From Bacilli bacterium (GTDB lineage Bacteria > Bacillota_I > Bacilli_A > RFN20 > CAG-826): a DNA stretch of 64,000 nucleotides. The DNA lies in contig JBJEDT010000025.1 in NCBI GenBank assembly GCA_051872335.1, positions 51,365-115,364 on the forward strand, given 5' to 3'. The notes under the pieces were generated by a model, which saw nothing but the letters and a program-made list of their open reading frames with translations, was not told the DNA's origin and made no database searches. Position 1 is the stretch's first letter; each line of letters begins with the position of its first letter. The position numbers and the translations under genes were made by a program. Shown here piece by piece: positions 10,279 through 28,700 of this stretch.

Positions 10279-11187
10279 TTAACTAGCAAACAATGATAAT
10301 GCAGTAACTGAAAATGATAATAATTGATAACAGTTAGATGAACCATTTTCTTTATCTTTATAATAATATATATCATTACCAGAACGTCGAGAATAAGTAT
10401 AATATGTATCACTAGCATTTGAGAATTCTATTGTAAAGAATACAACAATTGTTTTTCCACTTAATGACGTTCCGGAAACATAAGATAAGTCAACTCCATC
10501 AAAGTTACTTCCATCTCCTGATTCATTAAATACGTCAGTTAATGAAGTATCTCTATCACTTAATTCATAACCATTTAAGAAATTTAATGCTGAAGTATTC
10601 ATAGTTGCATTATCTTCTTTTAGCATAGCTCCTGAATAAATATTAATAGCTTCTGATAAATATATACCACCTAATACTTCGTCAGTATCTTTATCTACTT
10701 TATACATAGTAAGGACATCTTCCTCAACTAGAGTAGCAGTATAATTTGTTGAAGTATATTTTGTAATAGAAAGACCTGCACGAGATATTTGAGAAGATGA
10801 ACTTATAGTTAATTCAAAAGCATAAGTATATCGTGTATCAGGGAATATATCAGTAATATTCCACAATTCAGATGCAGACTCACTCATTTCAATAAAATCA
10901 GATGAATATGTACAAGTACTTATCTCAGCATAATCTTGATAACCAGTATATTTAGTTATTCCGTCATCATCTGTAGTATAGTTTCCTGAATAATACATTA
11001 ATTTATAGTTTTCAACCGATTCATCAATAGTAATATTAGAATTTCCTAAATCTGCATTTCGATTAACAGTAAACCAAGCGAATGTTGCTGTTGCAGCTGC
11101 TCCAAAAGAAATGAGTAAAACAAAAGCACTAAGTAAAACTTGTTTTAATTTAAACTTATTTAGTTCAAGTTTCATACTTTTGTCCAT
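10279..11187 (-). CDS. TasA/camelysin-family secreted protein (SipW-cognate signal peptide)
   Basis: N-terminus …GAAATATFAWFTVNRN…. The C-terminal region is S/T-rich. Confidence 0.6.
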   Translation of the reverse strand: MDKSMKLELNKFKLKQVLLSAFVLLISFGAAATATFAWFTVNRNADLGNSNITIDESVENYKLMYYSGNYTTDDDGITKYTGYQDYAEISTCTYSSDFIEMSESASELWNITDIFPDTRYTYAFELTISSSSQISRAGLSITKYTSTNYTATLVEEDVLTMYKVDKDTDEVLGGIYLSEAINIYSGAMLKEDNATMNTSALNFLNGYELSDRDTSLTDVFNESGDGSNFDGVDLSYVSGTSLSGKTIVVFFTIEFSNASDTYYTYSRRSGNDIYYYKDKENGSSNCYQLLSFSVTALSLFAS

Positions 11188-11222: not shown

Positions 11223-11948
11223 TTATTCAAATGGTTTATTAAAGTCTTGGAATAATAAGTTCAATAATTGTCCGATTTCAGGAGCTTGTTCAACCCCAAC
11301 ACGAACTCTTGATAATAATTGGTGATTGTTACCTACTTCATATGAACAAGCCTTAAAAACAACTAAAGGTATATCATATAAATAACATGCTGCAGCAAAG
11401 CCAGCAGCTTCGGTATCAACTGCAAGAACATTATTAATTTTACTAAAATGTTCTTGAATAGTAACTTTAACATCATCTAAATTAGAATGGAATTTATTTG
11501 ATGAAAGCAAAACACCTTGAACGATACGTTTGTTCTTATTCATACCATTTAAAGCATGAATAGTTTGAACAGTATCAAAATCTGAAGTATAGAACATTGG
11601 AAGTTCAGGTATTTGACCATAACGATATTTACCTAAAGCAAGTAGATCAACATCCATTGCATAAACTCTATCTGCAATAAATAAATCACCTTGGTCAAGG
11701 TTTGGTGAAATTGAAGAAACTGTTCCAATATTTACTACTAAATATGGTTTATATTTTTCAATTAATAATGCTGTAATCATAGCAGCCATTTCTTGTCCAT
11801 ATCCAGTCATGGCACATGCAATTTCTTTACCACCGAAAATTCCAATATAAACATCATAACGATTAGCTATGACTTCTACACGAGGGTCAATAATTCTTTT
11901 TTGAATATACTCGACATCATCTAAACGAGCACCAACAATTAAAATCAT
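11223..11948 (-). CDS. mtnN: MTA/SAH nucleosidase (MtnN/Pfs) family protein, possibly catalytically divergent
   Basis: Collinear with E. coli MtnN (ILIVGARLDDV vs IGIIGAMEEEV; AVDTEAAGFAAACYLYDIPLVVF vs [23 protein letters not shown]). The residue aligned by eye to the catalytic Asp197 (SD) is SY here. Confidence 0.6.
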   Translation of the reverse strand: MILIVGARLDDVEYIQKRIIDPRVEVIANRYDVYIGIFGGKEIACAMTGYGQEMAAMITALLIEKYKPYLVVNIGTVSSISPNLDQGDLFIADRVYAMDVDLLALGKYRYGQIPELPMFYTSDFDTVQTIHALNGMNKNKRIVQGVLLSSNKFHSNLDDVKVTIQEHFSKINNVLAVDTEAAGFAAACYLYDIPLVVFKACSYEVGNNHQLLSRVRVGVEQAPEIGQLLNLLFQDFNKPFE

Positions 11949-11960
11949 TAGTCATCCCTC

Positions 11961-13505
11961 CTATTTCTTACGTTCGAATTCATTATTCTTTAAGAATAAT
12001 TCGAACTCTTCTCTACTTAAAGGTTTTGAATAATAATAACCTTGAATGAAGTCACATTCTGAAGCCTTACAAATAGCAACTTGTTTAGCAGTTTGAATAC
12101 CTTCAGCAACAACTTTCATATCGAGAGCCTTTGCCATCGCAATAGTAGTTTTTGCAATATCACGTGACTTCTTATCAACTTCGACAGAATCAAAGAAAGA
12201 TTTATCAATCTTTAAAGTATCCATCGGTAATTTACGTAAGTTAGATAATGATGAATATCCAGTACCAAAATCATCAACAGCTAACTTAATGTGTAAAGCT
12301 TTTAATTGTTTAATAATAGATAATAAATATAGCATATCTCTACGAGCACTTGATTCAGTTAATTCAAGTTCAAGTTGTAAAGGAGATACCCCAAATTTTT
12401 CCATCGTTTCAGTTAAGAATTGAATAAGGTCAGTACGATAAATACCATTTCTTGAAAGGTTAACTGAAACATTAACTAAACGAGAACCTCTTTTTTTCCA
12501 GTATGCTAAGTCTTGGCAAACATGTTCAAACATATATCTATCAATTTCAATAATTTGATCATTACGTTCAGCAAATGGAATAAATGTTGCTGGGTTAACA
12601 ATACCTTTTGTTGGGTGTCTCCAACGAATAAGAGCTTCAGCACCAGTAAATTTTTCAGCTTTTAAATCAAATTTAGGTTGATAGAAAACTTCAAACTCAT
12701 GATTCTTAATTGCGTTTTCAATATCGTGAGCAAGTTCAAGTTCATCAATACTCTTTTGAATCATTGATTCTTCAAAAATAACAATGTTACCTTCTAGAGG
12801 CATATACATAGAGTTACGAGCAACTTCACAACGAGTAACAATATCATCAATAGATAATTTTTTATCATCTTCACATAAACATGTTTTATATGTTAATGTT
12901 GTAGGAACTCCTTTTTTATGAACATTAGAGTTAATAGCTTGATATAAAGCATCCATTTCTTTAATAATGGTTTTAGCATCATCAGCTTCCATATAAATTA
13001 AGAAAGCACCAGATGATCTTAAACCATATAATACGTTGTTAGCATTAACTTTGTAACGACCAACAATCGTTTCAGCAGCACAACGTGTCATTGCACGTGA
13101 AACATCTAAAGATGCTGTTGTAACACCACTACCGACAACATCAGAAGGCTTATCTAAATCAAGAGTTCCAATATAAGTAAATCTTCTATTTTTAATATTT
13201 CTTCTTTTTTCAACACCTAAATGAAAGTAGTTTTCATTATAAATATTATAATTACGATCGTAATAAGCAAGGTGATATTCACGAGATTCAGCAGCCCTTA
13301 CACGAACAGAACGTGCTGTGATTAACAAACCTAAAGCAATTAATATGCCAAGGAAAGAGCCACCTATATAGTAGTAATATGTTTGATCTAGTGGATGTCT
13401 TAAGAAAAACCATACTAATACACCAACACCAGCTGCAAAGAATAAATATCCAAAAATATTAAGTAAAATAATTTTTGTTTTAGCTTTTTTCATATTACTT
13501 ATCAC
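11961..13505 (-). CDS. Membrane-anchored degenerate-GGDEF/EAL c-di-GMP phosphodiesterase
   Basis: Two N-terminal TM helices. EAL-domain motifs EVFYQPK…GAEALIRW…, a DDFGTGYSS-type stretch and QG.Y are present. No intact GGDEF motif. The start overlaps the upstream sipW-like stop by 11 bp. Confidence 0.7.
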   Translation of the reverse strand: MISNMKKAKTKIILLNIFGYLFFAAGVGVLVWFFLRHPLDQTYYYYIGGSFLGILIALGLLITARSVRVRAAESREYHLAYYDRNYNIYNENYFHLGVEKRRNIKNRRFTYIGTLDLDKPSDVVGSGVTTASLDVSRAMTRCAAETIVGRYKVNANNVLYGLRSSGAFLIYMEADDAKTIIKEMDALYQAINSNVHKKGVPTTLTYKTCLCEDDKKLSIDDIVTRCEVARNSMYMPLEGNIVIFEESMIQKSIDELELAHDIENAIKNHEFEVFYQPKFDLKAEKFTGAEALIRWRHPTKGIVNPATFIPFAERNDQIIEIDRYMFEHVCQDLAYWKKRGSRLVNVSVNLSRNGIYRTDLIQFLTETMEKFGVSPLQLELELTESSARRDMLYLLSIIKQLKALHIKLAVDDFGTGYSSLSNLRKLPMDTLKIDKSFFDSVEVDKKSRDIAKTTIAMAKALDMKVVAEGIQTAKQVAICKASECDFIQGYYYSKPLSREEFELFLKNNEFERKK

Positions 13506-14262
13506 CTTCCCTTTCTTCTTTATCTTTTAAGTTTTCGTCTTTATTTTCTTTTTTTAATTCATCAAGAATTTGATTCTTCATTTCTTGTTTTAGTCTTTCC
13601 ATTTCTTCTTCGTGAGTCTCAAGACCTTCTTGTTTTCTTTTCTTTTCCATCTCATTTTCAACATGTACTAAACGTGCTTGTTTAATAAAATCAATAATGG
13701 AAACAATAAGAACATATCCTCCAGGAATCATTATTAGTAAAAATGAGACCAATGGTTTAGAAATAAATGAATAAACTACACCAAGTGAATAGGAATTTTT
13801 AACAACTTTACCAATAAGATAGTTACTATTAATAAAGTCATGTGGTTTTCCTTCACAACCACTTGTTCCACAAGATGAAGCTTCCATATTATCACCAAAA
13901 CATTCTAGTGTATATGTACCATCCTCATTTGCAGATATACCAACTAATCGATGAGTTACAATTTTATCATCGGATGTTCGATAAAATGTAATAATATCAC
14001 CTTCAACAATTATATTACCTTCTTCATCTACTTGTTTGGCAACTAATGTCGAAGGATCTACTTCTTTAACAATTACCATAGAATCAACTTTTAAAGTTGG
14101 CTCCATAGAATCAGTATAGACAATCAAAAATGATGTTTTACCAATTTGTGGTACTCCATAATTTCCTTGTCTTGATGTAAGTGAAATAATATTAATACCA
14201 AAGAAAAGGACTACAAAAACTGATAATAAAATTGATGCAATAATTTTAAGTTTCTTTTTCAT
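13495..14262 (-). CDS. sipW: SipW-type (archaeal/ER-type) signal peptidase I with C-terminal TM anchor and K/E-rich tail
   Basis: N-terminal TM, then catalytic-Ser motif YTDSMEPTLKVDSMVIV (SMEP, as in SipW). A second TM lies near residue 170, followed by a 60-aa K/E/D-rich tail. Confidence 0.7.
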   Translation of the reverse strand: MKKKLKIIASILLSVFVVLFFGINIISLTSRQGNYGVPQIGKTSFLIVYTDSMEPTLKVDSMVIVKEVDPSTLVAKQVDEEGNIIVEGDIITFYRTSDDKIVTHRLVGISANEDGTYTLECFGDNMEASSCGTSGCEGKPHDFINSNYLIGKVVKNSYSLGVVYSFISKPLVSFLLIMIPGGYVLIVSIIDFIKQARLVHVENEMEKKRKQEGLETHEEEMERLKQEMKNQILDELKKENKDENLKDKEEREGDK

Positions 14263-14282
14263 CAGTTTCTCCTTTCCTCATT

Positions 14283-16412
14283 TTATGCGTTATTGTTGTT
14301 ATCGTCAGAATATTCAAAGTCGAAGTCATCATCATCAAAAGATTCTTCATCTTCCTCTTCTTCAAATTGTTGATCAACAATTTTCTTAGCTTCTTCTTCG
14401 TTTTCAATGTAATCGCTGTTATCTTCTATTTCTTCTTCATTAGAATTATCATCTTCATTATTTTCTTCATTAATTTCTTCTTGTTCTAATAATGTAGATT
14501 CGTTGTCTTCTTCTAAAGAAGTAGAAGTTTCTAAAGTTTCAGATGATTCTTCTTGATTATCGATATTATTATCAATATCCTCTGCATAAGTAAAATCATC
14601 GTCTTCTTCATCAAATTCATCAAGTCCAGCGTTACGACGATATGCTTCTTGAGCCATACGCAATGCTTCTAGTTTTGCTTGAGCTTTAGCAATTAATTCA
14701 TTACGTAAAGATTGTTGACGACGTCTTTCTTCTTCAAGTAACATTTCACGTTGTCTTTGTTCACGTTCAAGTTTTGCTTGTTCACGTGCAGCAATCTTAT
14801 CCTCAATAGCTTTTTTACGAGCTTCTTCCTTAGCCTTAATTTCTTCCATTCGTGCTCTACGACTTTCTTCCTCGATTTTAAACATTTCTTCAGCTTCCTC
14901 AAGGAGTCGCTTTTCTTCTTCCTCTTCTTCAGTTAAGCCAGAAGGACGAAGAACTTTTAATTCGGCTAAACGATCTTGCTCAGCTTGACGTTTTGCATTT
15001 TCACGTGCACGATTTAATGCATCTCTTTCTGCATCAAGAATTGCCTTTTCACGAGCTTTCTCTCGAGCAATTCTTTCTTCTTCAAGACGTTTTGCTTCTG
15101 CTTTTTCAAAAGCAATACGTGCTCTTTCTTCTGCAGCTTTTTGTTCTGCACGCATTTTTGCAATACGCTCTTCTTCTTTTTGCTTTGCAAGAGCTCTTTG
15201 TTTTTCTCTTTCTAAACGTTTTTGTTCAAGCACTTTGAGTTTTGCTAATCGTGCTTGTTCTTGTTTCTTTCTTAGATTTCTCATTTTAGGAGTTAAGTTT
15301 CTAGAAATTTCACTGCTTCCAGTTCCACCAACATAACGACCCTCAATATCAAATTTAGAATCCAAGAAATCTTTATCAATTACTCTATTACCAATCTTTG
15401 GTTGAATACGATAAGCCTTAACTTTTGCAAGGTCTATCATACGAGTCTTGTTTGTTTGTAAGGATATAATTCCTCCAAACATATTTTTTTGTAATTCATC
15501 AACATAAGGTTCATCAAATTTAGCTGATGTTTCCTTAACATGAATTGAAATACCTAACTTATCGTATGACTCCATAAATTTCCATAAAATATGAGCTTTT
15601 TTATAGTTAGGGTTTTTAACAATAATGTTTGTTAACATAATAGGTGAGTTAACAGGTTTACAATCTTTTAATTGTTCCATAAACCAGCTTTGTGAAAGGT
15701 AAGCTAATCTACGACGAAGTAATGCAATCTTTTTTAAAAGCAATTCATTAGCTTCCCTATTACCTTCATCAGCTGAAGGAACAGAAATTTTAACTTTAGT
15801 TTCATATTCATATAAAACTTCACCAACTTGAACTTTGTTTTTAACGACAACTGCATCTGAGTCACGTGTATCAGCGTGTTTTGTAATATAATCATATCTT
15901 TTATTAATGAAGTTTAAAGCACGTTCAATACATGTTTTAATAAAACGGTTTTCATAAATTCCGTATTCATCTTCTGCAGTAACAGTAAGAATTTTATTAG
16001 GAATAATATTGCCATCTTTATCAATATCTTTAATATATTGAGTATGAGATGCTAAGTGAATAACTGATTCATTTGTAATTTTACGAGCTAATTCAATTGG
16101 TGTAATATAACGTTCAAGACGAATATGCTTTTTTGGATCTTTAGAAATGTTTTCTAAAGCAGGAATAGCATTTTCAAAGTGTTGAATCCAAAGTAGATCA
16201 TATTTTTTTGTCTCTGTACGAGATAATTGTGAAATTTCTTGATCTGGAGAATTTCTAATAGCAACTAAGAATTCACGTGAAGTTGGGTCACTATCAACAA
16301 CTTCATTAACTGCTTCAATATAGCGTTTATGAACATCATCAAATGGAGAAGGTCCTAGATTACTTAAATCAACAGGAGATTCTACTTGTTTGTTCTTTTC
16401 TTCATCTGCCAT
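14283..16412 (-). CDS. McrB-partner protein: unknown N-domain (about 370 aa) + roughly 230-aa K/E/R/A coiled coil + poly-acidic C-terminal tail
   Basis: Located 86 bp downstream of the McrB-like gene (the McrC position). N-domain contains DEYGIYENRFIK. Residues about 380-600 are REKAREKA…/AKRQAEQDRLAELK-type heptads. The C-terminus is …EEEEDEESFDDDDFDFEYSDDNNNNA. No PD-(D/E)xK nuclease motif was recognised. Confidence 0.6.
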   Translation of the reverse strand: MADEEKNKQVESPVDLSNLGPSPFDDVHKRYIEAVNEVVDSDPTSREFLVAIRNSPDQEISQLSRTETKKYDLLWIQHFENAIPALENISKDPKKHIRLERYITPIELARKITNESVIHLASHTQYIKDIDKDGNIIPNKILTVTAEDEYGIYENRFIKTCIERALNFINKRYDYITKHADTRDSDAVVVKNKVQVGEVLYEYETKVKISVPSADEGNREANELLLKKIALLRRRLAYLSQSWFMEQLKDCKPVNSPIMLTNIIVKNPNYKKAHILWKFMESYDKLGISIHVKETSAKFDEPYVDELQKNMFGGIISLQTNKTRMIDLAKVKAYRIQPKIGNRVIDKDFLDSKFDIEGRYVGGTGSSEISRNLTPKMRNLRKKQEQARLAKLKVLEQKRLEREKQRALAKQKEEERIAKMRAEQKAAEERARIAFEKAEAKRLEEERIAREKAREKAILDAERDALNRARENAKRQAEQDRLAELKVLRPSGLTEEEEEEKRLLEEAEEMFKIEEESRRARMEEIKAKEEARKKAIEDKIAAREQAKLEREQRQREMLLEEERRRQQSLRNELIAKAQAKLEALRMAQEAYRRNAGLDEFDEEDDDFTYAEDIDNNIDNQEESSETLETSTSLEEDNESTLLEQEEINEENNEDDNSNEEEIEDNSDYIENEEEAKKIVDQQFEEEEDEESFDDDDFDFEYSDDNNNNA

Positions 16413-16435
16413 TTTATAATCCTCCTTTCTTGAAA

Positions 16436-16498
16436 TTCATAATATATATAATAATGAAAATATAAATATATATAATATAAATAATATATATATAATAA
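16436..16498. repeat. (TA)n / ATA-rich simple-sequence tract in the McrB-like/partner intergenic region
   Basis: aatatatataataatgaaaatataaatatatataatataaataatatatatataataatt, seen directly. Confidence 0.7.
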
Positions 16499-18034
16499 TT
16501 AGCTTCCCACTTTCATTAAGTTTTCAATAAACTTCTTAGATTCAGGGAATGTGTTTTTACCAAATAAATGGTCAAGTTGTTCTATTAATTGACGTAATTC
16601 GTCTTTTAAGAAACCAATATTTAAGGATTCAAATTTCTTCAAAATCTTTGTTGAGAAGATATAGTCAAATCCATCAATTTCAGTACCACCACATGCAACG
16701 TACATTGGGACGAATAACTTTAATTGTTTCATAATACGGTTACCGAAAGCCAACTTGAAGTTTTTAATAACGAAGTCATCAAGTTTAGCAAATTTTTCAA
16801 TAATTTTATTTGAAACAGGATAGTTAGTTAATGCTTCTTGATATAGCTTATGTAAATATTCATAAGAAATATTTACTGGATCAGTAAAGTCTGCTTCAAA
16901 AGCAACACCTTTATTATTTAAGAAAATACAGATAGCACGGTCGTAAACCTTATCTGAAATAGTAAATGTAGAGTCATCGTTGTTAGCTGTTCCAATAAAC
17001 CATAGGTTTTGTGGAATTAATAATTTACCATCAGTAACATGTGCAGGGTCAGTTTTTGGATCTGGTGAAGAAATAAGTTCAACAATCCATTCATTAACGT
17101 TAGGCATTTCCATAATGGACAAGAATTCTGCAAAATAATACTCAATACGAGCTAAGTTCATTTCGTCGAGGACGATAACGTTACAGTCTTCACGATATGT
17201 ACATTCATAAATAATCTTTAAGAATTCAGTTTCATTAAATTTCTTTGTAAATTCGTTGTAATATCCGATAAGTTCTGAACGGTCACGCCAAGATGGTTGA
17301 ACAGGACAAATCTTTGTATCATTTTGGAAGAATTTTCCTAGTGCATATGGTAAGGAGGTTTTACCAGTACCAGAAATACCTTCTAGAATTAATAGTTTAG
17401 ATGCACCTAAACCAGCAAAGAAAGCACGAATAACTTTTAGTTCATAATATAGACCAAGTTGAGATGCAGCAAAGTTTCTAAAACGTTCACATAATTGTTC
17501 TAGAGATAGTTTATCAGCATCGTCCATTCGAACTGTCATATCAAGAGATTTATATTTAGCATCAACAAGAGCTAATTTTGTAAAACGACATTCAGTATTT
17601 GGACCTTTATCTTCTTCTTCCTCTTCTTCCTCTTCTTCAGGTAACTTACCACCTAAAGCATTAACTTTTAAGTTGAGAATTTTATTTCTTTCTTCTATAG
17701 CTTTATATAGTTCATAATTCAAACGTTCAACTTGTTGCATAAGTTCTTGTTGCTCTTGAACTTTTTTGCTAAAGCGGAATAATTTTCTAAATAGTAAAAA
17801 GAATAAGAAAATAATACCACCTATTAAAGCAGCAATAATGAGATAATAAATAACAAATAAAATCCATCCACCAGCACCGAATCCTGGTTTATATAGAATT
17901 AATAAATCGTTATAATCTCTAAAATTTTGACCGACTTCAGACCATGGATCTACAAATGTTAATTTGAGGAATCTTACAAGGTCTTGTATAAATAGTTGCC
18001 ACATGGCAGCTACATATTGGAAAAAGTCATTCAT
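16499..18034 (-). CDS. Membrane-anchored McrB-like AAA+ (AAA_5) GTPase
   Basis: One TM helix (GWILFVIYYLIIAALIGGIIFLFFLLF), a coiled coil and an E9 tract, then a McrB-type NTPase. Motifs are Walker A LEGISGTGKTSL, VIVLDEMNLARIEYYFAEFLSIME (compare McrB IFIIDEINRANLSKVFGEVMMLME) and WFIGTANNDDSTF (compare McrB IIGLMNTADRS). Confidence 0.7.
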   Translation of the reverse strand: MNDFFQYVAAMWQLFIQDLVRFLKLTFVDPWSEVGQNFRDYNDLLILYKPGFGAGGWILFVIYYLIIAALIGGIIFLFFLLFRKLFRFSKKVQEQQELMQQVERLNYELYKAIEERNKILNLKVNALGGKLPEEEEEEEEEDKGPNTECRFTKLALVDAKYKSLDMTVRMDDADKLSLEQLCERFRNFAASQLGLYYELKVIRAFFAGLGASKLLILEGISGTGKTSLPYALGKFFQNDTKICPVQPSWRDRSELIGYYNEFTKKFNETEFLKIIYECTYREDCNVIVLDEMNLARIEYYFAEFLSIMEMPNVNEWIVELISSPDPKTDPAHVTDGKLLIPQNLWFIGTANNDDSTFTISDKVYDRAICIFLNNKGVAFEADFTDPVNISYEYLHKLYQEALTNYPVSNKIIEKFAKLDDFVIKNFKLAFGNRIMKQLKLFVPMYVACGGTEIDGFDYIFSTKILKKFESLNIGFLKDELRQLIEQLDHLFGKNTFPESKKFIENLMKVGS

Positions 18035-18081
18035 ATTTAACCCTCCTAAATTTCAAGTACTCAAATTAGAAAAAATGATAA

Positions 18082-18864
18082 TTACTTTGTGCTAGATTGA
18101 TTATCCTCAATTCCTAACTCTTTTAATATTTCAGCTCTCATAGCTTCTTTTTCTTTTGCTCTTTCTTCTTCAGAAATAGCTGTTTTTTCTTTAGCTAACT
18201 CCTTAGCGTTTTCTTCTTTTGTTTCTATGATTGTAACTATTAACTTATATCCTTTATATAAGAATAGACAAAACATAGGAACTAAAACACATAATGCAAA
18301 TCCCCATGCATAAGGAGTATCTAATAAAAAGCCATAGACAGCTCCAATACCAGGTACTCGTGTTCCGTTATATACCCCTATAACGGATGAATAAGTGACT
18401 GTTTGTGTTGCTAGTACATCCCCATCTTCGACATAAGTACCTTTTGTGACGAAGAGAGCCCCCTTGTTTTGAATTTCAATAACTTGGTGGGTAACAATTT
18501 CACTTTGTCCATCACCATCAATATCATAAAAGAATGATATAATAGTTTCATTTTCAATAATTTCAATACTTGGTTTCAAATATTGAGTTGCATCATCGTA
18601 TCTAAATGATACTTTTTCAACAACAATCAAATCCCCTTTATTGATTGTGCCTTTCATTGAGCTCGTTTGAACTCTTAAATAAGACTTATTATTTATAGTA
18701 GGAACCCCATAATTATTCTTTGAAGTAAGAGAAACCGCAACAAGAAACACTGATAGTAATACCATTACTACCGTGAAAACATTAATGACAATATTTATAA
18801 TTTTAGAAAACAAAGATTCTTTTTCATCTTTAACATTTTCATTTTGTACTTTTTGTTTTTTCAT
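18082..18864 (-). CDS. sipW: SipW-type signal peptidase I, paralog 2, with C-terminal TM and K/E-rich tail
   Basis: TM, then QTSSMKGTINKGDLIVVEKV (S-M motif), a C-terminal TM (WGFALCVLVPMFCLFLY) and a tail KEENAKELAKEKTAISEEERAKEKEAMRAEILKEL. Confidence 0.65.
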   Translation of the reverse strand: MKKQKVQNENVKDEKESLFSKIINIVINVFTVVMVLLSVFLVAVSLTSKNNYGVPTINNKSYLRVQTSSMKGTINKGDLIVVEKVSFRYDDATQYLKPSIEIIENETIISFFYDIDGDGQSEIVTHQVIEIQNKGALFVTKGTYVEDGDVLATQTVTYSSVIGVYNGTRVPGIGAVYGFLLDTPYAWGFALCVLVPMFCLFLYKGYKLIVTIIETKEENAKELAKEKTAISEEERAKEKEAMRAEILKELGIEDNQSSTK

Positions 18865-18901
18865 TTACTTCCTCGTTCAAATAATAGTTAAGTTTTGTTT
18901 T

Positions 18902-20197
18902 TTAGTGTCCCCATTCATCTTGGCTGTTTACATCTCTACCATTCAAAATAATATTTGCAATAAAACTCGAATCAGACGAATCACTGCTGCAATCTAAATC
19001 CCATCCTTCTGCCCACATAGTGACAATTAATTTTTTAGCTTCTCTACGTGTAACATAAGTTAAAGCATTATCTATTCGTTTATATGCGTTAGTAGATGAA
19101 GATGTTGTTCTTTTTTTATCTAAAGCATCTTCTTCATAAAGAATTAGATTTTCCCCATTAACAACTTTAGATTGTTCAACATCTATAGGATTTGCATTTC
19201 CCCATGAATTTGCAAAGAAACCACCTACAAGTTCATGCTTTTCAAGTCCTGATGCACGAGCATTTTCTGAATATACTAGATTTGCACCATTTAGCAAACT
19301 ATATCTACCATAAAGAATTTCATTCTTTCTATATTCAGTTGCCCCATCATCAATAGAAGGATATACATCATAATATCCATCCTGAGGATCAGCATCTAAA
19401 CGACCATAATATTTTGTTTTTTGAAGAATAGAATTTTCATATGTTGGATTTCCATCAAATATATTATAAGTAAATCTATTGGTTCTATTTCCATCATCAT
19501 CTGTGTAATCTAATTCACTAAAAAACCCAATTCTAATATAGTTACTAACTTTATTTAATCGTTCTTCAGTATAACTAGAAACTGCTGCTTTTTCAGCGTT
19601 TTTTTCAGTATCTGGAAGAATAGATATATTTGAAGATAAAAAGACAAATACAGGAACATTTGTTGCTCTAACATAGAACTCAAATTCATAGTAATAATCT
19701 TTTACTTCGTTTCGTGTAACAGTAGTTCTACCACCAATATCAGTTAATGTTGGCATTTTAGTATAAACAGGCCTTGTTGATTCTAAACTAGTGGCATTAT
19801 TAAGCCATTCATCATAATAAGCATTTGAAATTGGTTGAAGTTTTGTACCTTCATCATATTGACCAAAATCAGTTAATACATCTGTATTAATATGAAATTC
19901 AGTATCAGTAAAATAATATATATCATCAACCCACTCACCAGTATCATCACTATATTTTTCTTTTAGTGAAGATAAGGATTCAGCAGGTGCTTTTAAACCA
20001 AGTTGCAAAACTCCCTCATCATCATAAATGGTATAAGATAAGTTATCAACCTGCAAAGCATTTGAAAATTCATACCACGCAACTGTAACAGTTACAAGAG
20101 ATGCTACAGCAAGAACAAACGAAGAGAAAGCTGCCATTACTTTATAATTTATTTTCTTATTCATATTGGTAGCTTCCTCCTTTCGTTTAATTTTCAA
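18902..20197 (-). CDS. TasA/camelysin-family secreted protein (SipW-cognate signal peptide)
   Basis: N-terminus …VASLVTVTVAWYEFSN…. C-terminal motif VTMWAEGWDLDCSSD. Confidence 0.6.
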   Translation of the reverse strand: MKIKRKEEATNMNKKINYKVMAAFSSFVLAVASLVTVTVAWYEFSNALQVDNLSYTIYDDEGVLQLGLKAPAESLSSLKEKYSDDTGEWVDDIYYFTDTEFHINTDVLTDFGQYDEGTKLQPISNAYYDEWLNNATSLESTRPVYTKMPTLTDIGGRTTVTRNEVKDYYYEFEFYVRATNVPVFVFLSSNISILPDTEKNAEKAAVSSYTEERLNKVSNYIRIGFFSELDYTDDDGNRTNRFTYNIFDGNPTYENSILQKTKYYGRLDADPQDGYYDVYPSIDDGATEYRKNEILYGRYSLLNGANLVYSENARASGLEKHELVGGFFANSWGNANPIDVEQSKVVNGENLILYEEDALDKKRTTSSSTNAYKRIDNALTYVTRREAKKLIVTMWAEGWDLDCSSDSSDSSFIANIILNGRDVNSQDEWGH

Positions 20198-20244
20198 AGT
20201 GTAGTATCGTTAAAATATTATCTACCTAATAAATGAATTTTTTA

Positions 20245-21840
20245 TTAATTACCTAGACCTGGAGCATGGAAACAAATACTACCTGTGAATGGTGCTTTGT
20301 TGTCATTTACAGAATTTGTATCCCAACCTTCTGTCCAAATCTTAATTGTTACTTCAGCATAACCTCTAGAATCAGTAATTGCTAAAGGATGATTTTTTGA
20401 TGCATCTTCGTGATATACGAAGTAATCAATACCATGTGCATCTTGTGTTTTAGCTTTGACTTTTTCACTGTATTTGAATGAAATTGATTCATATGCAGTT
20501 CCATCAGTCTTAACAAATTTACCAACGAATGCATTTTTATTAGCACCAATAACTGGTGTAGTAATATCAGATCCACCATTATCAACTACAACACTATATG
20601 TGTCATCATATAATGTATCGCCAGGTAATTCTAAATCTTCATGTTCACCATACCATTTATGGTCAAATCTCTTATAAGTTCCATCTGTTAAGTTATCAAC
20701 AACAGAACTATCAATTGATACGAAATCATCATTTTCTGTATCCCATGCAAATGCATGTCTTGTTGTAACATCATCAACAGTTGTATCGTAGTAATATACT
20801 TTTCTTGTATCTACTGTACCTTTTGCAGCTTCTAATCCATCTGCATCAGTAACATTAACAAAGTAAGTTGATTTATCTGAATCAGAAATGTTTGTAGTGT
20901 TGTAATCCCAAACACCATCAGCATCTAAATCTAGATATCCACCAACATTAGTTGAAACTTTATCATAACTAAAGTTAGATGGTGAATAAATATAATTGTT
21001 ATAATCAGATTCAAATGAAACACGTAAAGTTTTAACAACGTTATGTGTTACAGTTTGATTACCTTGTGTACCACCAATAAAATATGTACTTGCGTTATCT
21101 AAATAAATTGGTTGGTTAGCTACACCATTTGTATTAAATACTAAAGTGAAAGACATATACTTTTCTTTAATTGCTTTAATACCATCATTATAAGCTGTTA
21201 AATCAAGTGCATATTGAGCTAATTCAGCTTCTGAAGCATCATCACCAGGATATACAGGAGCAGTGTAAATTGCTGTATTACTATCATAATTTCCAGTAGC
21301 ACCTGCCAAAGCATTTCTATCTGGAATATCATAAAGTAATACATCATCATTTTTATCTAAACCAGTTCCTAATGCTAAAGATTGATCATTAAAATGACGT
21401 GAAGTAACTGGAGCTATAAAGTTCTCAGATTCTCTATCGGTATAACCATCATTGTAGTAAACAGCACGTAAATGACTTGCTTTGATTTGGTTACCTTTTT
21501 CAGTAAAGTTACTACCTTCTTGATAGTTCCAATAAATGTCGTTAATTTCAACTTCAGTATTTCCACCATCATAAGTAGGAATATCTTCATCACCAACTGC
21601 TTCAACTTTGAATTCATCTCCATTGGTATCACCAAATTGAGCAATTAATGCTTTAGCACCTTCAATAGTGTGTGGTTTAATACCAATAGTCAATGAACCA
21701 TCAATTTTAGCTGTTGTACCTGAGATTGTTGCTGTACCAGTATTTGATACAACGTACCAAGCAAATGTACCACCAACTAAGCAAAGTGTTGCTGCGCCAA
21801 ATGATGCAACCGATAATCCTAATTTCTTAGTATTCTTCAC
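20245..21840 (-). CDS. TasA/camelysin-family secreted protein (SipW-cognate signal peptide), 531 aa
   Basis: N-terminus MKNTKKLGLSVASFGAATLCLVGGTFAWYVVSN is nearly superimposable on TasA MKKKLSLGVASAALGLALVGGGTWAAFND. C-terminal TIKIWTEGWDTNSVND. Confidence 0.7.
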   Translation of the reverse strand: MKNTKKLGLSVASFGAATLCLVGGTFAWYVVSNTGTATISGTTAKIDGSLTIGIKPHTIEGAKALIAQFGDTNGDEFKVEAVGDEDIPTYDGGNTEVEINDIYWNYQEGSNFTEKGNQIKASHLRAVYYNDGYTDRESENFIAPVTSRHFNDQSLALGTGLDKNDDVLLYDIPDRNALAGATGNYDSNTAIYTAPVYPGDDASEAELAQYALDLTAYNDGIKAIKEKYMSFTLVFNTNGVANQPIYLDNASTYFIGGTQGNQTVTHNVVKTLRVSFESDYNNYIYSPSNFSYDKVSTNVGGYLDLDADGVWDYNTTNISDSDKSTYFVNVTDADGLEAAKGTVDTRKVYYYDTTVDDVTTRHAFAWDTENDDFVSIDSSVVDNLTDGTYKRFDHKWYGEHEDLELPGDTLYDDTYSVVVDNGGSDITTPVIGANKNAFVGKFVKTDGTAYESISFKYSEKVKAKTQDAHGIDYFVYHEDASKNHPLAITDSRGYAEVTIKIWTEGWDTNSVNDNKAPFTGSICFHAPGLGN

Positions 21841-23011
21841 TATCGTTTACCTCCTTTTTAAAATTTTTATTCATATTAGTTAAATTTTTCATATCAATAT
21901 TTGTAAAGTTTTTATTTTCGTTAAGTACTATCATTCCTGATTCTTCGTTCATTAAACCGGCTGTTTCTTCTTCCGTATCGAATTCATCACGAAGTGCAAT
22001 ATACATTGAAAGTTGTATACCAGCACCACTAGGAACATTCCCTGTAGCTTCTAAATCATATCCATCAATCCATACAATAATTGTGAAACGAATTGTTTCT
22101 TGCCCTTCGATGTAATCTTCATTTGATTTTAAAATATAATCACTATCATAGAATGGTTCAGCAAATCCTTTATTGATTTCCTTTTCACCAGTACATATTA
22201 GAAGACCATCATCAGTTTTTACGTATCTAGAAATACATTCTCTAGATTCATTATCACTAGTTTCAGTTTTTACAGGTTCAGATCTAACTTTTGCATATGT
22301 TACCATATCATGAGTTTGATCTTCTTCATGAATCAATCCATCACTTCCATATATAACAGAGTTCTTGTAGAATCGTAATCTAATAACATTATCAATTGTG
22401 ATATTAGATTCAGTTGAAACAGTCATATCGTCAATTTTGATATGAAAGTCATAACCTGCTCTTCTACTACCAACATTGCGAATATAGAAAGTATATGCTA
22501 AGAAAGAGCCACCATAAATTTCAGAAGTTCCATTATGTGATCCACCTTGAATTGGATCAATAATATCTTCGTCAGGAAGTTCATCAGCAGCCATTGCATA
22601 AGTTGATCTAGATGACTCAGCTCTTAAACGAGTTGTCTTGTTTTCAAAATAGCCATCTTCGCTCATAGTTAAAGCAAGTTGGTCACGTTCAAGTTGAACT
22701 GTTAAGTTACCAACAAGTGAACTTAAATATGCAATAGTAATGATAATACAAAGTATAACTACAGAAAGAGATAAGAAAAAGTTTACAAACATCTTTTTTC
22801 TGTAACGTGAAGCTACAGGATCTTTGTAATTTTTGAACTTCTCATAAGGGTTATCAATTTCAACGAGTCTTTTCGACTTCTTTTTAGGTTGTTCTTCAGC
22901 CTTGTCTTTATCGTCAGTTTTAGATGAAGGATCAATGTTTTCACTTTCCTCATCCAAAATAGATTTTAGTTCATCTGAAGATAACTCTTCTAATTGATCC
23001 TTTTTAGCCAT
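21827..23011 (-). CDS. Membrane-tethered TasA-like protein: charged N-terminal cytoplasmic tail + single TM + TasA-like ectodomain
   Basis: Residues 1-75 are K/D/E-rich, then a TM FFLSLSVVILCIIITIAYLSS (a degenerate T.AY motif). C-terminal RFTIIVWIDGYDLEATG matches the family IW.EGWD motif. Confidence 0.55.
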   Translation of the reverse strand: MAKKDQLEELSSDELKSILDEESENIDPSSKTDDKDKAEEQPKKKSKRLVEIDNPYEKFKNYKDPVASRYRKKMFVNFFLSLSVVILCIIITIAYLSSLVGNLTVQLERDQLALTMSEDGYFENKTTRLRAESSRSTYAMAADELPDEDIIDPIQGGSHNGTSEIYGGSFLAYTFYIRNVGSRRAGYDFHIKIDDMTVSTESNITIDNVIRLRFYKNSVIYGSDGLIHEEDQTHDMVTYAKVRSEPVKTETSDNESRECISRYVKTDDGLLICTGEKEINKGFAEPFYDSDYILKSNEDYIEGQETIRFTIIVWIDGYDLEATGNVPSGAGIQLSMYIALRDEFDTEEETAGLMNEESGMIVLNENKNFTNIDMKNLTNMNKNFKKEVNDSEEY

Positions 23012-23326
23012 AGTTATCTCCTTGTTTTTTTAATAACGAAAAAAAGTGTAAATGTTCTCCTATTTTTTAATTTTTTACATCAACGACTTCGTATTGATCT
23101 CTCAATACACCATTAGAAGTGAAATCATTAACGTAACAATTAAGAAACAATTGATACATCAACATAGTATTTGGAATAAATCCTATTCAGTTGTAACACA
23201 ATATTAATGCCCTAAATCAATATCATGCTAGATTGATAGATTATTATAAATAATCTTTCAACCTATAAATAATATAACATAATAATTTTATAAGAGTATT
23301 ATTTTTACACAATTTTTTTAAGAAAA

Positions 23327-23359
23327 CATTAAAAAAAGGTACCAAAATCGGTACCTTTT
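23327..23359 (-). terminator. Rho-independent terminator after the sipW paralog 3
   Basis: aaaaggtacc-aaaatc-ggtacctttt hairpin with U7 on the minus-strand transcript, 17 bp past the stop at 23376. Confidence 0.7.
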
Positions 23360-23375
23360 AATAACATTTTAGTGT

Positions 23376-24191
23376 TTATTCGGATTTTTTATCCTTTTCT
23401 TTCTCTTTTTCTTTCATCTCTTTCTTGAGTTCCTCTAAAGCTAAACGCTTAGCTTCCTCAAGAATTTGAGCTTTTTCTTCTTCATGTTGCATAGTTATTT
23501 CTTCAATAGCAGCATCTTTCTTTTGAACAAAGATTAGTCTAATGAATGAATAACCATTCCAGATGAATAATGCAATAAGAGGAAGAACAATTACACAAAA
23601 CATTAATGTAGTATTTGATTGTAATCCATAGACAATAGTGCCCATACCATTTACATGGCCTTTATATTTAGCAATGATTTTATCAGTGGAAATATTAATT
23701 ACATTTGTAGAAATATCTTCTTCAGCATCACCACGTGTGTAAATACCATAAGTTACACTTCCACTTTCTGTAATAATTTCACGAACTTCACGGATTCGGT
23801 GGGTAACAACAGCTTCTTGACCATTAACATATGACCAATACATAATGATGTCACCTTTGTTTTCTCCTAAACTATCATCACCTTTTAAACTCTCAATTTG
23901 TTCTCTTCTTTCAGTAGGATCATTTGAGAATTGTTTACCATAAACTAAATCGCCTTTTTTAAAGGTAGGTGCCATAGAATCAGATAAAACAGGGAATAAT
24001 GAATTACCTGTAATAGGATTACTAGCAACTGAAGATGTATTACTACTTGTTGTTCCCATTGTTAATATAGAAACGATCAATAAGAATACAACTAACAAAC
24101 ACTCAGCGACAGTCAAAGATGTATTAACAATCTTTTTTACTTTTGCTTTTTTATTTTTAGCAACTTCAACATTTTCGACTTGTTGTTCCAT
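23376..24191 (-). CDS. sipW: SipW-type signal peptidase I, paralog 3, with C-terminal TM and K/E-rich tail
   Basis: TM, then FPVLSDSMAPTFKKGDLVYG, a C-terminal TM (LMFCVIVLPLIALFIW) and a tail …EEKAQILEEAKRLALEELKKEMKEKEKEKDKKSE. Confidence 0.65.
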   Translation of the reverse strand: MEQQVENVEVAKNKKAKVKKIVNTSLTVAECLLVVFLLIVSILTMGTTSSNTSSVASNPITGNSLFPVLSDSMAPTFKKGDLVYGKQFSNDPTERREQIESLKGDDSLGENKGDIIMYWSYVNGQEAVVTHRIREVREIITESGSVTYGIYTRGDAEEDISTNVINISTDKIIAKYKGHVNGMGTIVYGLQSNTTLMFCVIVLPLIALFIWNGYSFIRLIFVQKKDAAIEEITMQHEEEKAQILEEAKRLALEELKKEMKEKEKEKDKKSE

Positions 24192-24251: not shown

Positions 24252-25247
24252 TTAAGCAGCAGGCATGAATGAAGAGAATTGTAAAGTAGTATTAAATGAA
24301 CCATTTCTAACATCACCTGAGCAATCTTCATCTGTACCTTCAACCCAAATTCTAACACCAATATAGCCTAAATAAGCATCTTGTTCTACACCATTAGCGT
24401 TTGTAAACTTAATGTTATTGCCATCTTCGTCTTGAGCAGTTGCTAAAGTACAAACTTTTAATGAATTAACGGCAGAAGATGTAACTTTATCAGCAATAGG
24501 TGAAAGAATTGGAGTAATTTCACATAAAGAAGTAAAATCATTATATCCAGTATTAAATGAAGTTCCTGTCTTTACACTTGTACTAGTTGCTGAAGTACTT
24601 GTTATGAAATTATAGCCTTTGTCACCCTCTGAATCAGTACCAACAAAAACTCCTGTTAATGTCTTATTTTCACCATTTGATACAAAACCACCACTTTGAT
24701 TAGACTTTAAATCAAAGAAAGCAACTCTAGCACATTGGCTTAGACCCCAAGATTGAGCTACTTCATCTTCAGCAGCGCCAGGTTTTTTAACAGCGTTCTC
24801 TGTTAATTGTGTTTGAGATCCTAACCAAACTTCATAAGCTTTATCAGAACGGAAGCCAAGTACTATTTCATGTACATAAGTATACATTTTATCGCTTGAA
24901 CTAGTTGCCCCAGAAACATCAGCTACATTTGTAAAATTAGTACCATCAGAAGCAATATTTGGTTTAAAGAAAGAGACACCATCTCCTGAAACATCTTGAA
25001 CAGCTTTACCAGTTAAAGCTAAATCAGAGTAAATGCCCCAATCTTTAGCTGCCAATGTATAAGCAGTACCATTGTAAGAAACAACTCTCATTTCTAAGTT
25101 TGAATCTTGTTGAATAGTGACGTTATTTAAAGAAATTTGTGATTGACGTGTTGTTGTAAACCATGCATATGTAGCTGTTGACATTGCAACAGTTGACATT
25201 GCGAGTAATAAACCAGATGTGATTAATAATCTGTGATTTAATTTCAT
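24252..25247 (-). CDS. TasA/camelysin-family secreted protein (SipW-cognate signal peptide)
   Basis: N-terminus …AMSTVAMSTATYAWFTTTRQ…. C-terminal GVRIWVEGTDEDCSGD. Confidence 0.65.
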   Translation of the reverse strand: MKLNHRLLITSGLLLAMSTVAMSTATYAWFTTTRQSQISLNNVTIQQDSNLEMRVVSYNGTAYTLAAKDWGIYSDLALTGKAVQDVSGDGVSFFKPNIASDGTNFTNVADVSGATSSSDKMYTYVHEIVLGFRSDKAYEVWLGSQTQLTENAVKKPGAAEDEVAQSWGLSQCARVAFFDLKSNQSGGFVSNGENKTLTGVFVGTDSEGDKGYNFITSTSATSTSVKTGTSFNTGYNDFTSLCEITPILSPIADKVTSSAVNSLKVCTLATAQDEDGNNIKFTNANGVEQDAYLGYIGVRIWVEGTDEDCSGDVRNGSFNTTLQFSSFMPAA

Positions 25248-25718: not shown

Positions 25719-28700
25719 CTAGTTTTTCGCATTGAAATTCAAGTATTTTAAGTATTCTCTAATAGGAATAGGTTTAGAGAATAAGTAACCTTGTGCTTCG
25801 TCAAAGTTCATATCTTTTAAAATACTGAATTGCCCTTCGGTTTCAACACCTTCGGCAACAAGTCCAAATTTTGACTCTTTAGCAAAGTCAACAATATAGG
25901 ACAAAGCAACTTTAGAACGTTGAGAACGTTCAATATCCATAATACATGTACGGTCAACCTTAATTTGATCAACAGCTAGGTCTTGGAAGACCTTGTTAGA
26001 TTGAACAGACATACCATAGTTATCTATAGCCCATGATACTCCTTTTTCTTTTAAAATCAACATAACATTTCGAACTGTTTGCAAATTATCAACAACAACA
26101 CCTTCATTTACCTCGAATTTTAAGAATCCTGAAGGGAAACGGTGCTTATTCAATAAAGCAGAAACACGAGCGATAAAATCAGGGTTTGTAATTGAGTTTG
26201 AAGAAATGTTAATTGAAATATTTGTAACACCAATTTGTTGGAAAATTTCATAACCATGTGCTTTCCATAATTCACCAATAGAATCAATAATATATTGCTC
26301 AATTTCAAACATCATATTATTTTTAACAGCGATAGGAACAAATTCTGAAGGTGGAATATATCCACGAGCTGGATCGTTTAAACGTAATAAAGCTTCAGCA
26401 CCAATTGGTTTACGATCAGATATTCTTAAAACAGGTTGTAAGAAAACTTCAAATTTGTCTTTAGCAATAGCATCCTTAATGATATCAAGAATGTAGTCTT
26501 CACGATTAAGTTTACGGACATCTTTTTCACCGTAAATATACAAGTTATTCAAACCAATATTTTTTGCATCTTCTAAAGTTGTATTAACAGCACTATCAAA
26601 TTGTTCAATATCCAAAATATCACCAGGATATGGAATTAAAGAAGCATGGAATTCAATTCTAAATGTATCTTTATCACCAGTCATTGGTTCAATCATTTTA
26701 TTAAAGATATTTTCGACAAGTGTTAATACTTCTTTACGAGTATAACGTTTTAAAATAAGAGCAAGTGTTGTTTTATTATATCGATATACTTCATCTTGGA
26801 AATCAAGAATTTCAAATCTTCGTAACAATTCTTGTAAAATTTTTCTTTCACCTTCAACTTCAAACATTGGGATCCAATGTTCAAATTCGTGAATATCAAT
26901 GAAGAAAATATAACCCATTCCTTTAGTTTGTAGTTCACGTTCATAGTCACTTTTAAGTTTGACATCGTTGTAAATATGTAATAATGGGTCGTAGAAGTTA
27001 GCATCAAGTCTTTTTCTAGCTTCGTTATTTTCTAGTAAAATCAAAACTTCGTTTTCTTCAGTTGGTAAAGCAGCTAAAGTTGAAACCATAATTTCTTCAC
27101 CAAGTTTTGGTAAGAAAGCAAGACCATTACCAACTTTTAAAGGACAATAGTCACAAACTCTATTTCCTTGAGTATTAAAAATGTTATAACACTTAACACC
27201 ACGTCTAGCATTTGGATATATCTTAGCTAAACCTGTGGAAACATATGTTAATTCATTTGTCTTATTGTTAATACCATAAACATATTTTTCATCACGTTTT
27301 AACAATGTAGAAAGAATTAATTCTTGTCTTTCAACATCTTTTGCTGACATATACATATCTACCATTGCAAATATAATATCGGCAGCACATAACATAATTT
27401 CTCTATCGATAATAGTAAAAGGTGGTTGTTCATTTACGTTGTTAAAATAAATAATACCTTTTAATGTAGGACCTTTAGTCATCTTAAAGTGATAGTAACG
27501 TTCAATTGATAAATTGTAAAAAACAGATCTAACTGAGAATGGTAAGTTTTCTACTGTATTACCAAATAAAGATGAAGAACTATCAAATAAGTTCAAATAT
27601 TCATTTAAACGAGAAATTTGTAAAGAATCATAAGTAATAAAACCACTAGTATCTGGTGAAGAAGAGTGCTCAAACCAAGGAACAAGTCGACGTCCTGAGT
27701 CTTGAACTAACATAATGCCACCATTATCAAAGCCCATCATATTACAATAAAGTTTAACAGAGTTTTGAATTTCACGATTCAAGTCTTTAAAAGTAACACA
27801 ACGTACTAAATTTTTATTAATAGCTTCTAGATATAAAATTGATCTTCTATATCTTTCTTGAGAATCAAGAACAGCATCATTATTTGGTTCGAATAATCCA
27901 TAGTCTTGAACACCAACATTTTTAGTAGAGTCAAGAGCTTCAACAGCATCATTTATAATTCTTTCACTACTTGAGAAAGGATATATAGCGACACCAGCTT
28001 TACATGAATATAGAATTTGAGAACCATCACGTAAAATTTCTGTAATGTGATATTCAGATAATAAAGTTCTTAATTCAGAAATTAAGATTGATGTATTAGT
28101 AACTGATGATATATATAACAAAATCGTTTCGTGATCAAATTCACCAATCATTGTTGGTTTTAAAACTTCTTTAGCACGATTTACAAGTTCATATAAATAT
28201 TCAGGTTTTTCACTACCAATCATCTGTACTGCTATAACAGCTGAGTGATATAAATATTGCTTTGCAATAAGTTTATTCAAATTTGCTTGGAAACTATTAA
28301 ACGTTAATATATCATCACGAACAAAATCGGCTTCTTCTAAGTTAAGTGTTGTTTCAACAGCTGAGTAGCTTCGGTGTTCGAAAGCTTTAATTGTTTCATT
28401 AACGTAGTTTCTTAATGATTCAATTTCATTAATAGATAATTTTGTATTAATAGGTTTAAATTCAGTTTTAGATAATTGTTCAATAGAATCATTAACAATT
28501 TCAAGTTCATTTGTTACATGATTTGTAACTTTTTTAATTCCTTTACGATAAACTAAAATAAATATGAATTCGAAAATACCTGTTAGTGTCAATGCTCCTG
28601 CAATCACATAAGCGCTTCTATAAACGAAGAAGTAAACAAGTACTCCAATTAATATAAAAAGCGTCGATAGAACAGTTAATACTACCGGTTTAGTTAGATT

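Follow-up and report, generated by a model that had tools for sequence, protein, structure and literature searches.

SipW-like signal peptidases with long, conserved C-terminal tails flank the McrBC-like pair of a CoCoPALM locus in a Bacilli bacterium

Signal peptidases of the SipW type are described as proteins with an N-terminal transmembrane (TM) helix, a C-terminal TM helix and a cytoplasmic tail (PMC13566338). For the enzyme of Bacillus subtilis, that article reports, citing Terra (2012), that deletion of residues 170-190 impaired surface adhesion and did not abolish TasA processing. In the SipW-BsaA system of Clostridium perfringens, TasA-like subunits polymerise by donor-strand exchange while they are tethered by their signal peptides, and cleavage by SipW was proposed as the release step for the tethered oligomers (PMC11580942). 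A third system, CoCoPALM, was named in one paragraph by Bell et al. (2024), who deferred its analysis to a later paper: an McrB GTPase of the NxD clade is fused to an FtsB-like TM/coiled coil, the McrC homolog carries coiled coils, and genes of the signal peptidase family are associated. Here we describe a CoCoPALM locus, located in a window of 64,000 nucleotides (nt) from a Bacilli bacterium (GTDB lineage Bacteria; Bacillota_I; Bacilli_A; RFN20; CAG-826; assembly GCA_051872335.1, contig JBJEDT010000025.1, positions 51,365 to 115,364 of the forward strand; all positions below count from the first letter of the window). The locus encodes three SipW-like peptidases, SipW-A, SipW-B and SipW-C, which carry long, charged tails behind the second TM helix (TM2), and we propose that TM2 and tail may serve as an adaptor to the neighboring McrB/McrC assembly.

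All three peptidase genes lie on the minus strand. SipW-A (255 amino acids (aa), 13495..14262), which matches the NCBIfam SipW model NF046067, is encoded directly after the McrC-like gene, and its gene overlaps by 11 nt with the start of an EAL gene (11961..13505). The gene of SipW-B (260 aa, 18082..18864) lies 48 nt ahead of the one for the McrB-like protein, and that of SipW-C (271 aa, 23376..24191) follows the gene of a 331-aa substrate, with which it forms a two-gene unit. A first-pass annotation, made from the letters of the window, had recognized three SipW paralogs here, each with an N-terminal TM helix, a catalytic domain, a second TM helix and a tail, and open reading frames (ORFs), hidden Markov models (HMMs) and hydropathy confirm this description. 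The matches to NF046067 have E values of 1.4e-13 (A), 2.5e-14 (B) and 1.9e-10 (C), with scores of 50.8, 53.3 and 40.6 bits that lie far under the equivalog cut-off of 190 bits. With TIGR02228, the model for archaeal and endoplasmic reticulum (ER)-type signal peptidase I (SPase I), scores of 45.3, 45.0 and 39.7 bits were obtained (E about 1e-10 to 1e-12), none of which reaches the cut-off of 51.85, and the Pfam S24/S26 matches are marginal. Judged by these profiles, A, B and C are homologous to SipW (E 1e-10 to 1e-14) but form a divergent subfamily and are not SipW equivalogs.

The pairwise identity among the three paralogs amounts to only 28-32%, with the S-M and T-H motifs common to all of them. 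For comparison, related loci were collected by a metagenome scan with the McrB-like protein, which yielded more than 413 relatives; 80 loci, at 45-66% identity, were fetched. The catalytic S-M and H motifs (TH(R/Q)) are invariant in the three paralogs and in all 87 SipW-like sequences of these related loci. The Asp of the GDN motif (D106 in B. subtilis SipW) is kept in SipW-A (GDN) and SipW-C (GDA); SipW-B has GTY in place of GDN at residue 143, as have its orthologs, with Ser and His retained. This Asp is replaced in about 25% of the homologs (GIN, GVN), including some clades in which the bearer is the only full-length SipW of the locus. Given these replacements, some SipW copies may differ in activity.

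Kyte-Doolittle hydropathy gives each peptidase one N-terminal and one C-terminal TM helix, which in SipW-A comprise residues 1-31 and 159-194. In an AlphaFold2 model of SipW-B (30-sequence alignment, mean pLDDT (predicted local distance difference test) 77), helices 18-50 and 187-249 flank a confident beta core, and TM2 and tail are predicted as one continuous helix, 187-249, which stops at the end of the string MRAEILKEL. The orientation is N-terminus in, TM1, catalytic domain out, TM2 and tail in the cytoplasm; the side of the tail is derived from topology rules, because the catalytic domain must face out to meet signal peptides and because B and C begin with a K-rich stretch. The C-terminal TM helix, which the first-pass annotation had called extra, is a standard feature of SipW (PMC13566338; Bacillus sipW-tasA locus), and it is instead the length and the content of the tail that differ.

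The tails comprise residues 195-255 in SipW-A (61 aa, 13498..13680), 211-260 in SipW-B (50 aa, 18085..18234) and 223-271 in SipW-C (49 aa, 23379..23525), all encoded on the minus strand. Their initial description as extensions of 45-65 aa rich in K, E and A holds for length and for K/E in all three and for Ala in B and C; the tail of A contains a single Ala. The strings KEKEAMRAEILKEL and EEAKRLALEELKKEMKEKEKEKDKK, cited at that stage, are present in the tails. K, E, R and D together make up 57% (A), 48% (B) and 59% (C) of the residues, and each tail is net negative. Within them we defined a 9-mer helix motif, h-[KR]-x-[EQD]-h-h-x-[ED]-h, searched as [LIMVF][KR]x[EQD][LIMVA][LIMV]x[ED][LIMVFY]. 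The strict form is present in SipW-A (MKNQILDEL, encoded at about 13555-13581) and SipW-B (MRAEILKEL, about 18115-18141). SipW-C has only the variant EEAKRLALEELKKE (about 23418-23459), of a class that is shared by the mini-SipW tails described below. The tail, a predicted helical continuation of TM2, ends in this motif 13-41 residues beyond TM2.

In a set of 72 non-redundant SipWs from the related loci (less than 80% identity), 64 have tails of at least 30 aa. The 9-mer occurs in 29 of the 72 tails, whereas shuffling of their residues leaves it in 0.1 +/- 0.3 (at most 2 in 1000 shuffles), an enrichment of about 300-fold. Sorted by ORF class, it was found in 51 of 110 SipW-family proteins, in none of the McrC-like (0/69), McrB-like (0/75) and EAL (0/57) proteins and in 3 of 910 others. 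The motif is absent from equally K/E-rich McrC regions, and it is much more frequent in the tails than their composition would predict. The Glu equivalent to E249 of SipW-B is identical in 78% of the 72 homologs; the positions above it are S69, M70, H126, G142, V65 and R127 of the catalytic core, and also G59, G163, G174 and D107. An ER/K single alpha-helix or a strongly amphipathic helix was considered as well and dropped, as opposite charges at i/i+3 and i/i+4 and the hydrophobic moment were no better than in shuffles.

Conservation of the tails among orthologs, on which the first-pass annotation had made its docking proposal depend and for which it had suggested an alignment, is borne out, as tail identity tracks core identity in all three paralogs. 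The SipW-B orthologs (93, 72, 59 and 56% identity) all retain the tail and the string MRAEILKEL. For SipW-B, tail identities are 94/58/64/46% against core identities of 93/76/56/54%. The corresponding values are 65/61/53% against 55/56/47% for SipW-C and 84/34/62% against 95/55/71% for SipW-A. The tails of the orthologs are therefore about as conserved as the catalytic cores. When 1.84 billion representatives were searched with a profile built from the three cores without their tails, 5,781 relatives were retrieved at E <=0.001; among the best 149 of them, 147 have a C-terminal TM helix and 138 a tail of at least 30 aa, with a median of 57 aa. Members of about 190 aa have tails of 7-15 aa. The scan of genome contigs gave one close relative, from a Bacilli metagenome-assembled genome.

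In at least 15 of the related loci there are ORFs of 117-142 aa in which TM1 is joined to TM2 by a short loop and TM2 is followed by a motif-bearing tail (...ELLEEAKRQAREEL...), without a catalytic domain. These mini-SipWs match the SipW HMM over TM2 and tail with E values of 1e-6 to 1e-17, and both parts align with those of SipW-C of the window. They are found at L010:6285-6686, L011:1104-1505, L013:1212-1568, L019:212-625, L025:8013-8411, L026:1683-2057, L028:7129-7530, L034:7984-8391 and in others, and the loci that carry them have no SipW immediately upstream of mcrB; the mini-SipW ORF sits upstream of mcrB. That TM hairpin and tail were kept when the peptidase domain was lost argues for a function of this part that would be independent of the peptidase. 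The tail is a selected module, because it is conserved like the core, carries a family-specific motif and is retained in the mini-SipWs.

The genes encoding SipW-like proteins bracket mcrB-mcrC in the fetched loci. A SipW gene is placed some 15-200 nt (usually 30-50) ahead of mcrB in 25 of the 59 loci with room for it and directly after mcrC in 39 of the 48 with room; with at least 5 kb of upstream sequence, 23 of 25 loci have a SipW or a mini-SipW upstream. Five further contexts (P0003, P0006, P0180, P0175 and P0167) likewise show a McrB-like protein of 511-532 aa and a McrC-like neighbor adjoining a tailed SipW, and for three of these five neighbors DUF2357 is on record. The number of SipWs per related locus ranges from one, plus the mini-protein, to three.

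In the window, the McrB-like AAA+ GTPase (511 aa, 16499..18034, minus strand) matches AAA_5 and has an N-terminal TM helix at about residues 57-85, a Walker A motif GISGTGKT, a Walker B motif VLDEMN and the sequence GTANNDD. It shares 49% identity with a distant homolog, and its profile matches the structure of E. coli McrB (6HZ4) with an E value of 2e-4. GTAN[NKR]DD is found in all 40 unique McrB-like homologs listed and fits the pattern "NxD followed by D/E", with N-N-D-D also readable as NxxD. All homologs have a TM helix at about residues 50-89 and a conserved juxtamembrane helical segment of about 40 aa. In one related locus (L002:10880-11158), a second copy of the N-terminal TM region of McrB is encoded by a 92-aa ORF between sipW-B and mcrB.

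The McrC-like protein (709 aa, 14283..16412, minus strand) is composed of an N-terminal DUF2357 domain and a K/E-rich C-terminal region. Its first 360 residues match Pfam DUF2357 (PF09823) with an E value of 3e-8 and 33.7 bits, above the cut-off of 23.3, and so do all 16 of 16 McrC-like homologs; residues 75-320 align with the DUF2357 protein of a distant locus (E 5e-39). A PDB sequence search with the McrC profile returned no match; Pfam on the isolated N-terminal domain did match. The first-pass annotation had taken this protein for a K/E-rich coiled-coil protein and recognized neither the McrC homology nor the CoCoPALM system. Its C-terminal region of about 350 aa consists to 66% of K, E, R, D, A and Q, and a part rich in these residues, 110-573 aa in length, terminates the McrC-like proteins of 69 loci. 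From the composition we infer that it forms a coiled coil. No nuclease domain was detected in the McrC-like proteins. Locus L050 (3335-5629) encodes a short McrC homolog of 420 aa followed by a separate K/E/R-rich protein of 333 aa, as if the coiled-coil region had been split off into its own gene.

With an McrB GTPase fused to a TM helix and a putative coiled coil, a DUF2357-containing McrC with a K/E-rich region and signal peptidases, the locus has the architecture described by Bell et al. (2024), and on this gene content it is a CoCoPALM system. Their paper does not contain the peptidase tails, the tail motif, mini-SipWs, substrates of the TasA fold or a linkage to EAL and PNP_UDP_1. In the literature searched we found no later CoCoPALM paper, no other link between SipW and McrB and no description of the tail motif, its specificity for the SipW family, the mini-SipWs, the TasA-fold substrates or the SipW-EAL-PNP_UDP_1 synteny. 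The peptidases are a long-tailed variant of SipW, in a system that has been given a name but no characterization.

The putative substrates are encoded on the minus strand as well. A secreted fiber-subunit candidate of 331 aa (24252..25247) with the TasA-type signal peptide motif TATYAWF precedes SipW-C; it is identical to a hypothetical protein that NCBI lists for a Bacilli metagenome-assembled genome, and its paralogs are proteins of 531 aa (20245..21840; signal motif GGTFAWY, C-terminal W-x-EGWD motif, weak Peptidase_M73 match), 431 aa (18902..20197; TVAWY) and 302 aa (10279..11187; TATFAWF, downstream of the nucleosidase gene). The N-terminal T-x-A-W-[FY] motif resembles GGGTFAFFSD of Bacillus TasA/CalY, and the substrates share a nearly invariant C-terminal motif, W-x-E-G-[WT]-D...C. 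There is no Pfam model for this family, and profiles of the substrates yielded no useful match in sequence searches of Pfam and PDB. The substrates are TasA-like in fold, and members with the cognate signal motif lie beside peptidase genes; cleavage by the neighboring peptidases is predicted. A further paralog of 394 aa (21827..23011) is membrane-anchored, with a charged cytoplasmic N-terminus of about 75 aa, one TM helix and a C-terminal W-x-DGYD; lacking a T-x-AW[FY] cleavage-type motif, it may stay uncleaved and act as a membrane anchor or as a base subunit. Comparable proteins are encoded in L002 (5333-6703, with Big_2) and L004 (8121-8921). The same tail motif was suspected in the N-terminus of the 394-aa protein and dropped, as the register is off by one residue.

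A strong intrinsic-terminator-like hairpin with an 11-bp stem and a T run (23334..23359, minus strand) lies just after the stop codon of SipW-C and sets the 331-aa gene and sipW-C apart from the rest of the cluster. The idea of one peptidase per substrate group put forward in the first-pass annotation is weakly supported, since this pair, closed by the hairpin like a sipW-tasA unit, is the only one that looks dedicated. The SipW positions are conserved relative to mcrB and mcrC and not to the substrates, and SipW-A is without an adjacent substrate.

Downstream of sipW-A follow the gene of the TM-anchored EAL-domain protein (11961..13505) and a nucleosidase-like PNP_UDP_1 gene (11223..11948), both on the minus strand. 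In related loci, too, the EAL gene directly follows the downstream SipW, and the order mcrB-mcrC-sipW-EAL-PNP_UDP_1 was detected in at least 21 of them (including L002, L009-L057, L088 and L089). This gene order links the system, at the level of predicted functions, to cyclic di-GMP (c-di-GMP) turnover and possibly to nucleoside salvage. The upstream border of the locus is formed by a 1008-aa TM protein (25719..28745, minus strand), an ortholog of which has EAL and a faint GGDEF match. At the other edge of the cluster, a secreted protein of 811 aa to which no family was assigned is encoded divergently (7746-10181, plus strand). The window was scanned with Rfam, which gave no riboswitch or other RNA family, and for promoters, which gave no signal above shuffles.

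The SipWs of the window share with B. subtilis SipW the Ser/His mechanism of ER-type SPase I, two TM helices around an external domain, a charged cytoplasmic tail and the vicinity of TasA-type substrates with a G-T-x-A-x-F-like signal motif. The B. subtilis tail has a reported peptidase-independent function (PMC13566338); the signal-peptidase-independent role in biofilm formation that the first-pass annotation had mentioned for this enzyme agrees with the adhesion defect reported there. Canonical SipWs, on the other hand, have about 190 aa and tails of about 16-20 aa without the motif, compared with 49-61 aa in the window, where moreover three copies bracket the McrBC-like pair and SipW-B lacks the GDN Asp. 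In the Bacillus sipW-tasA-calY locus, for instance, the 189-aa SipW has a C-terminal TM helix and a K/E-rich tail of about 16 aa, RSIDGEKKEKKVEQSV, from which the strict motif is absent. In one such canonical locus (L091:4286-5125, Bacillus sp. N5-665), a 279-aa TM protein with K/E repeats of the (KVEEQK)n type is encoded between tasA and calY. The C. perfringens system is alike in that SipW is encoded together with TasA-like subunits and differs in that no McrBC-like GTPase is described, export help being credited to type IV pilus proteins.

Pilus assembly factors with a signal peptidase fold offer another comparison. SipA is a LepB-type (P-type) homolog without catalytic residues that works with sortase-assembled pili. 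SipA/LepA of Streptococcus pyogenes (PDB 4N31) was among the weak fold matches and is essential for pilus polymerization; in contrast, the proteins of the window are of the ER type and retain Ser and His. As an analogy only, SipW TM2 and tail resemble FtsB/FtsL, with a TM helix running from out to in and then about 40 helical residues. The coiled coil of FtsB/FtsL is periplasmic, unlike the cytoplasmic segment of the SipW tail. The N-terminal TM helix of the McrB-like protein with its juxtamembrane helix of about 40 residues has a layout similar to SipW TM2 and tail, and by this likeness a parallel TM-helix zipper of the two would be geometrically possible.

Taking these observations together, we favor the reading that the SipW-like peptidases of this CoCoPALM locus have in TM2 and tail an interaction adaptor to the McrB/McrC assembly, by which cleavage would be gated, and assign it a probability of about 0.5. 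What we infer here is the physical contact, the partner in it and a role in gating; docking to the McrBC pair, both members of which the first-pass annotation had named as candidates, is plausible and the best-supported reading of the tails. In locus L084 (9214-15975), the two SipWs have very short tails of 6 and 14 aa, and its McrC protein, with 370 aa and hardly any K/E-rich extension, is the shortest observed, while TM helix and coiled coil of McrB are intact; this single case hints that tails and McrC coiled coil go together and that McrC is the partner of the tail. Several findings weigh against the adaptor reading. Tail length and length of the McrC coiled coil are uncorrelated (Spearman -0.07 and 0.09), the strict 9-mer is present in only 29 of the 72 tails, beside other classes such as IKQKAIEEYL, EEAKRQALEEL and GIDxNDE, and the tails show neither an excess of i/i+4 salt bridges nor an exceptional hydrophobic moment when compared with shuffles. 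In one locus from Clostridia (L006/L007), two SipWs with tails are encoded and no McrBC lies within 10 kb. Finally, tails of only 6-15 aa are found on several downstream SipWs of CoCoPALM loci (L084, L060, L065 and L051), and therefore the tail is not obligatory on every SipW copy.

The Clostridia locus also speaks for a tail that belongs to SipW itself and acts independently of McrBC, either as a regulatory module, comparable to the C-terminus of B. subtilis SipW with its peptidase-independent control over the expression of matrix genes, or as a homo- or hetero-oligomerization helix that pairs paralogs, so that the association with McrBC would reflect shared operon membership only. Such an intrinsic function has a precedent in the C-terminus of B. 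subtilis SipW (PMC13566338); the canonical Bacillus SipW has a short K/E-rich tail too, and the paralogs within one locus share the motif, as pairing among them would lead one to expect. However, the Bacillus tail lacks the strict motif, which in L006 is only weakly present, McrBC is missing only in L006/L007 among eight looked-up contexts and the 80 loci fetched with McrB, and mini-SipWs are retained specifically where the SipW directly upstream of mcrB is missing. We regard an intrinsic role of this kind as possible, yet rather unlikely. A different docking partner, the co-encoded TM-EAL phosphodiesterase or the Sec translocon or ribosome, might be read from the SipW-EAL-PNP_UDP_1 order in at least 21 loci and from the 11-nt overlap of sipW-A with the EAL start. 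SipW-EAL adjacency is missing, though, from many CoCoPALM loci whose SipWs are tailed (L046-L087 and others), and the SipW upstream of mcrB bears the motif despite not lying beside an EAL gene, which makes these partners quite improbable. The low G+C content of the window (27-32%), the simple composition of the tails and their lack of a salt-bridge or amphipathic signal against shuffles would also suit functionless, low-complexity K/E extensions that arose from AT-rich codon bias. Against the enrichment of the motif beyond composition, its absence from the K/E-rich McrC, tails conserved like cores and their retention in mini-proteins without a catalytic domain, this explanation is strongly disfavored and hardly credible.

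If TM2 and tail are an adaptor to McrB/McrC, the system might operate as follows. Sec would export the pre-subunits, which would remain anchored through their signal peptides; by analogy with BsaA of C. perfringens, donor-strand exchange may precede cleavage by SipW, and cleavage would release the growing fiber. The module of TM2 and tail would hold the peptidase, or its hairpin-only relative, at the membrane-anchored McrB/McrC assembly, and the state of the GTPase, perhaps together with c-di-GMP turnover by the flanking EAL proteins, would gate where and when signal peptides are cleaved, thereby controlling polymerization and release of the fiber.

TasA-type fibers are thought to assemble extracellularly without an energy source. 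A bolder version of the proposal, which we consider unlikely at present, would make TM2 and tail of SipW the membrane adaptor of a fiber-assembly machine of Bacillota driven by nucleoside triphosphates (NTPs): an exapted, nuclease-less McrBC GTPase anchored in the membrane would bind the tail motif of the flanking peptidases, or of their remnants without a catalytic domain, and GTP hydrolysis under the control of c-di-GMP would gate or power cleavage and the donor-strand polymerization of TasA-like subunits. If this were true, the pairing of prepilin peptidase and ATPase in type IV pili would be a functional analog, evolutionarily unrelated.

CoCoPALM loci are abundant in metagenomes of gut, rumen and digesters, as the more than 413 relatives from one scan indicate, and they set SipW peptidases beside a GTPase of restriction-system origin that is anchored in the membrane. 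The tail motif offers a mutable handle on whether cytoplasmic nucleotide hydrolysis and c-di-GMP control the assembly of extracellular fibers, and it could help to explain the peptidase-independent function of the C-terminus of B. subtilis SipW.

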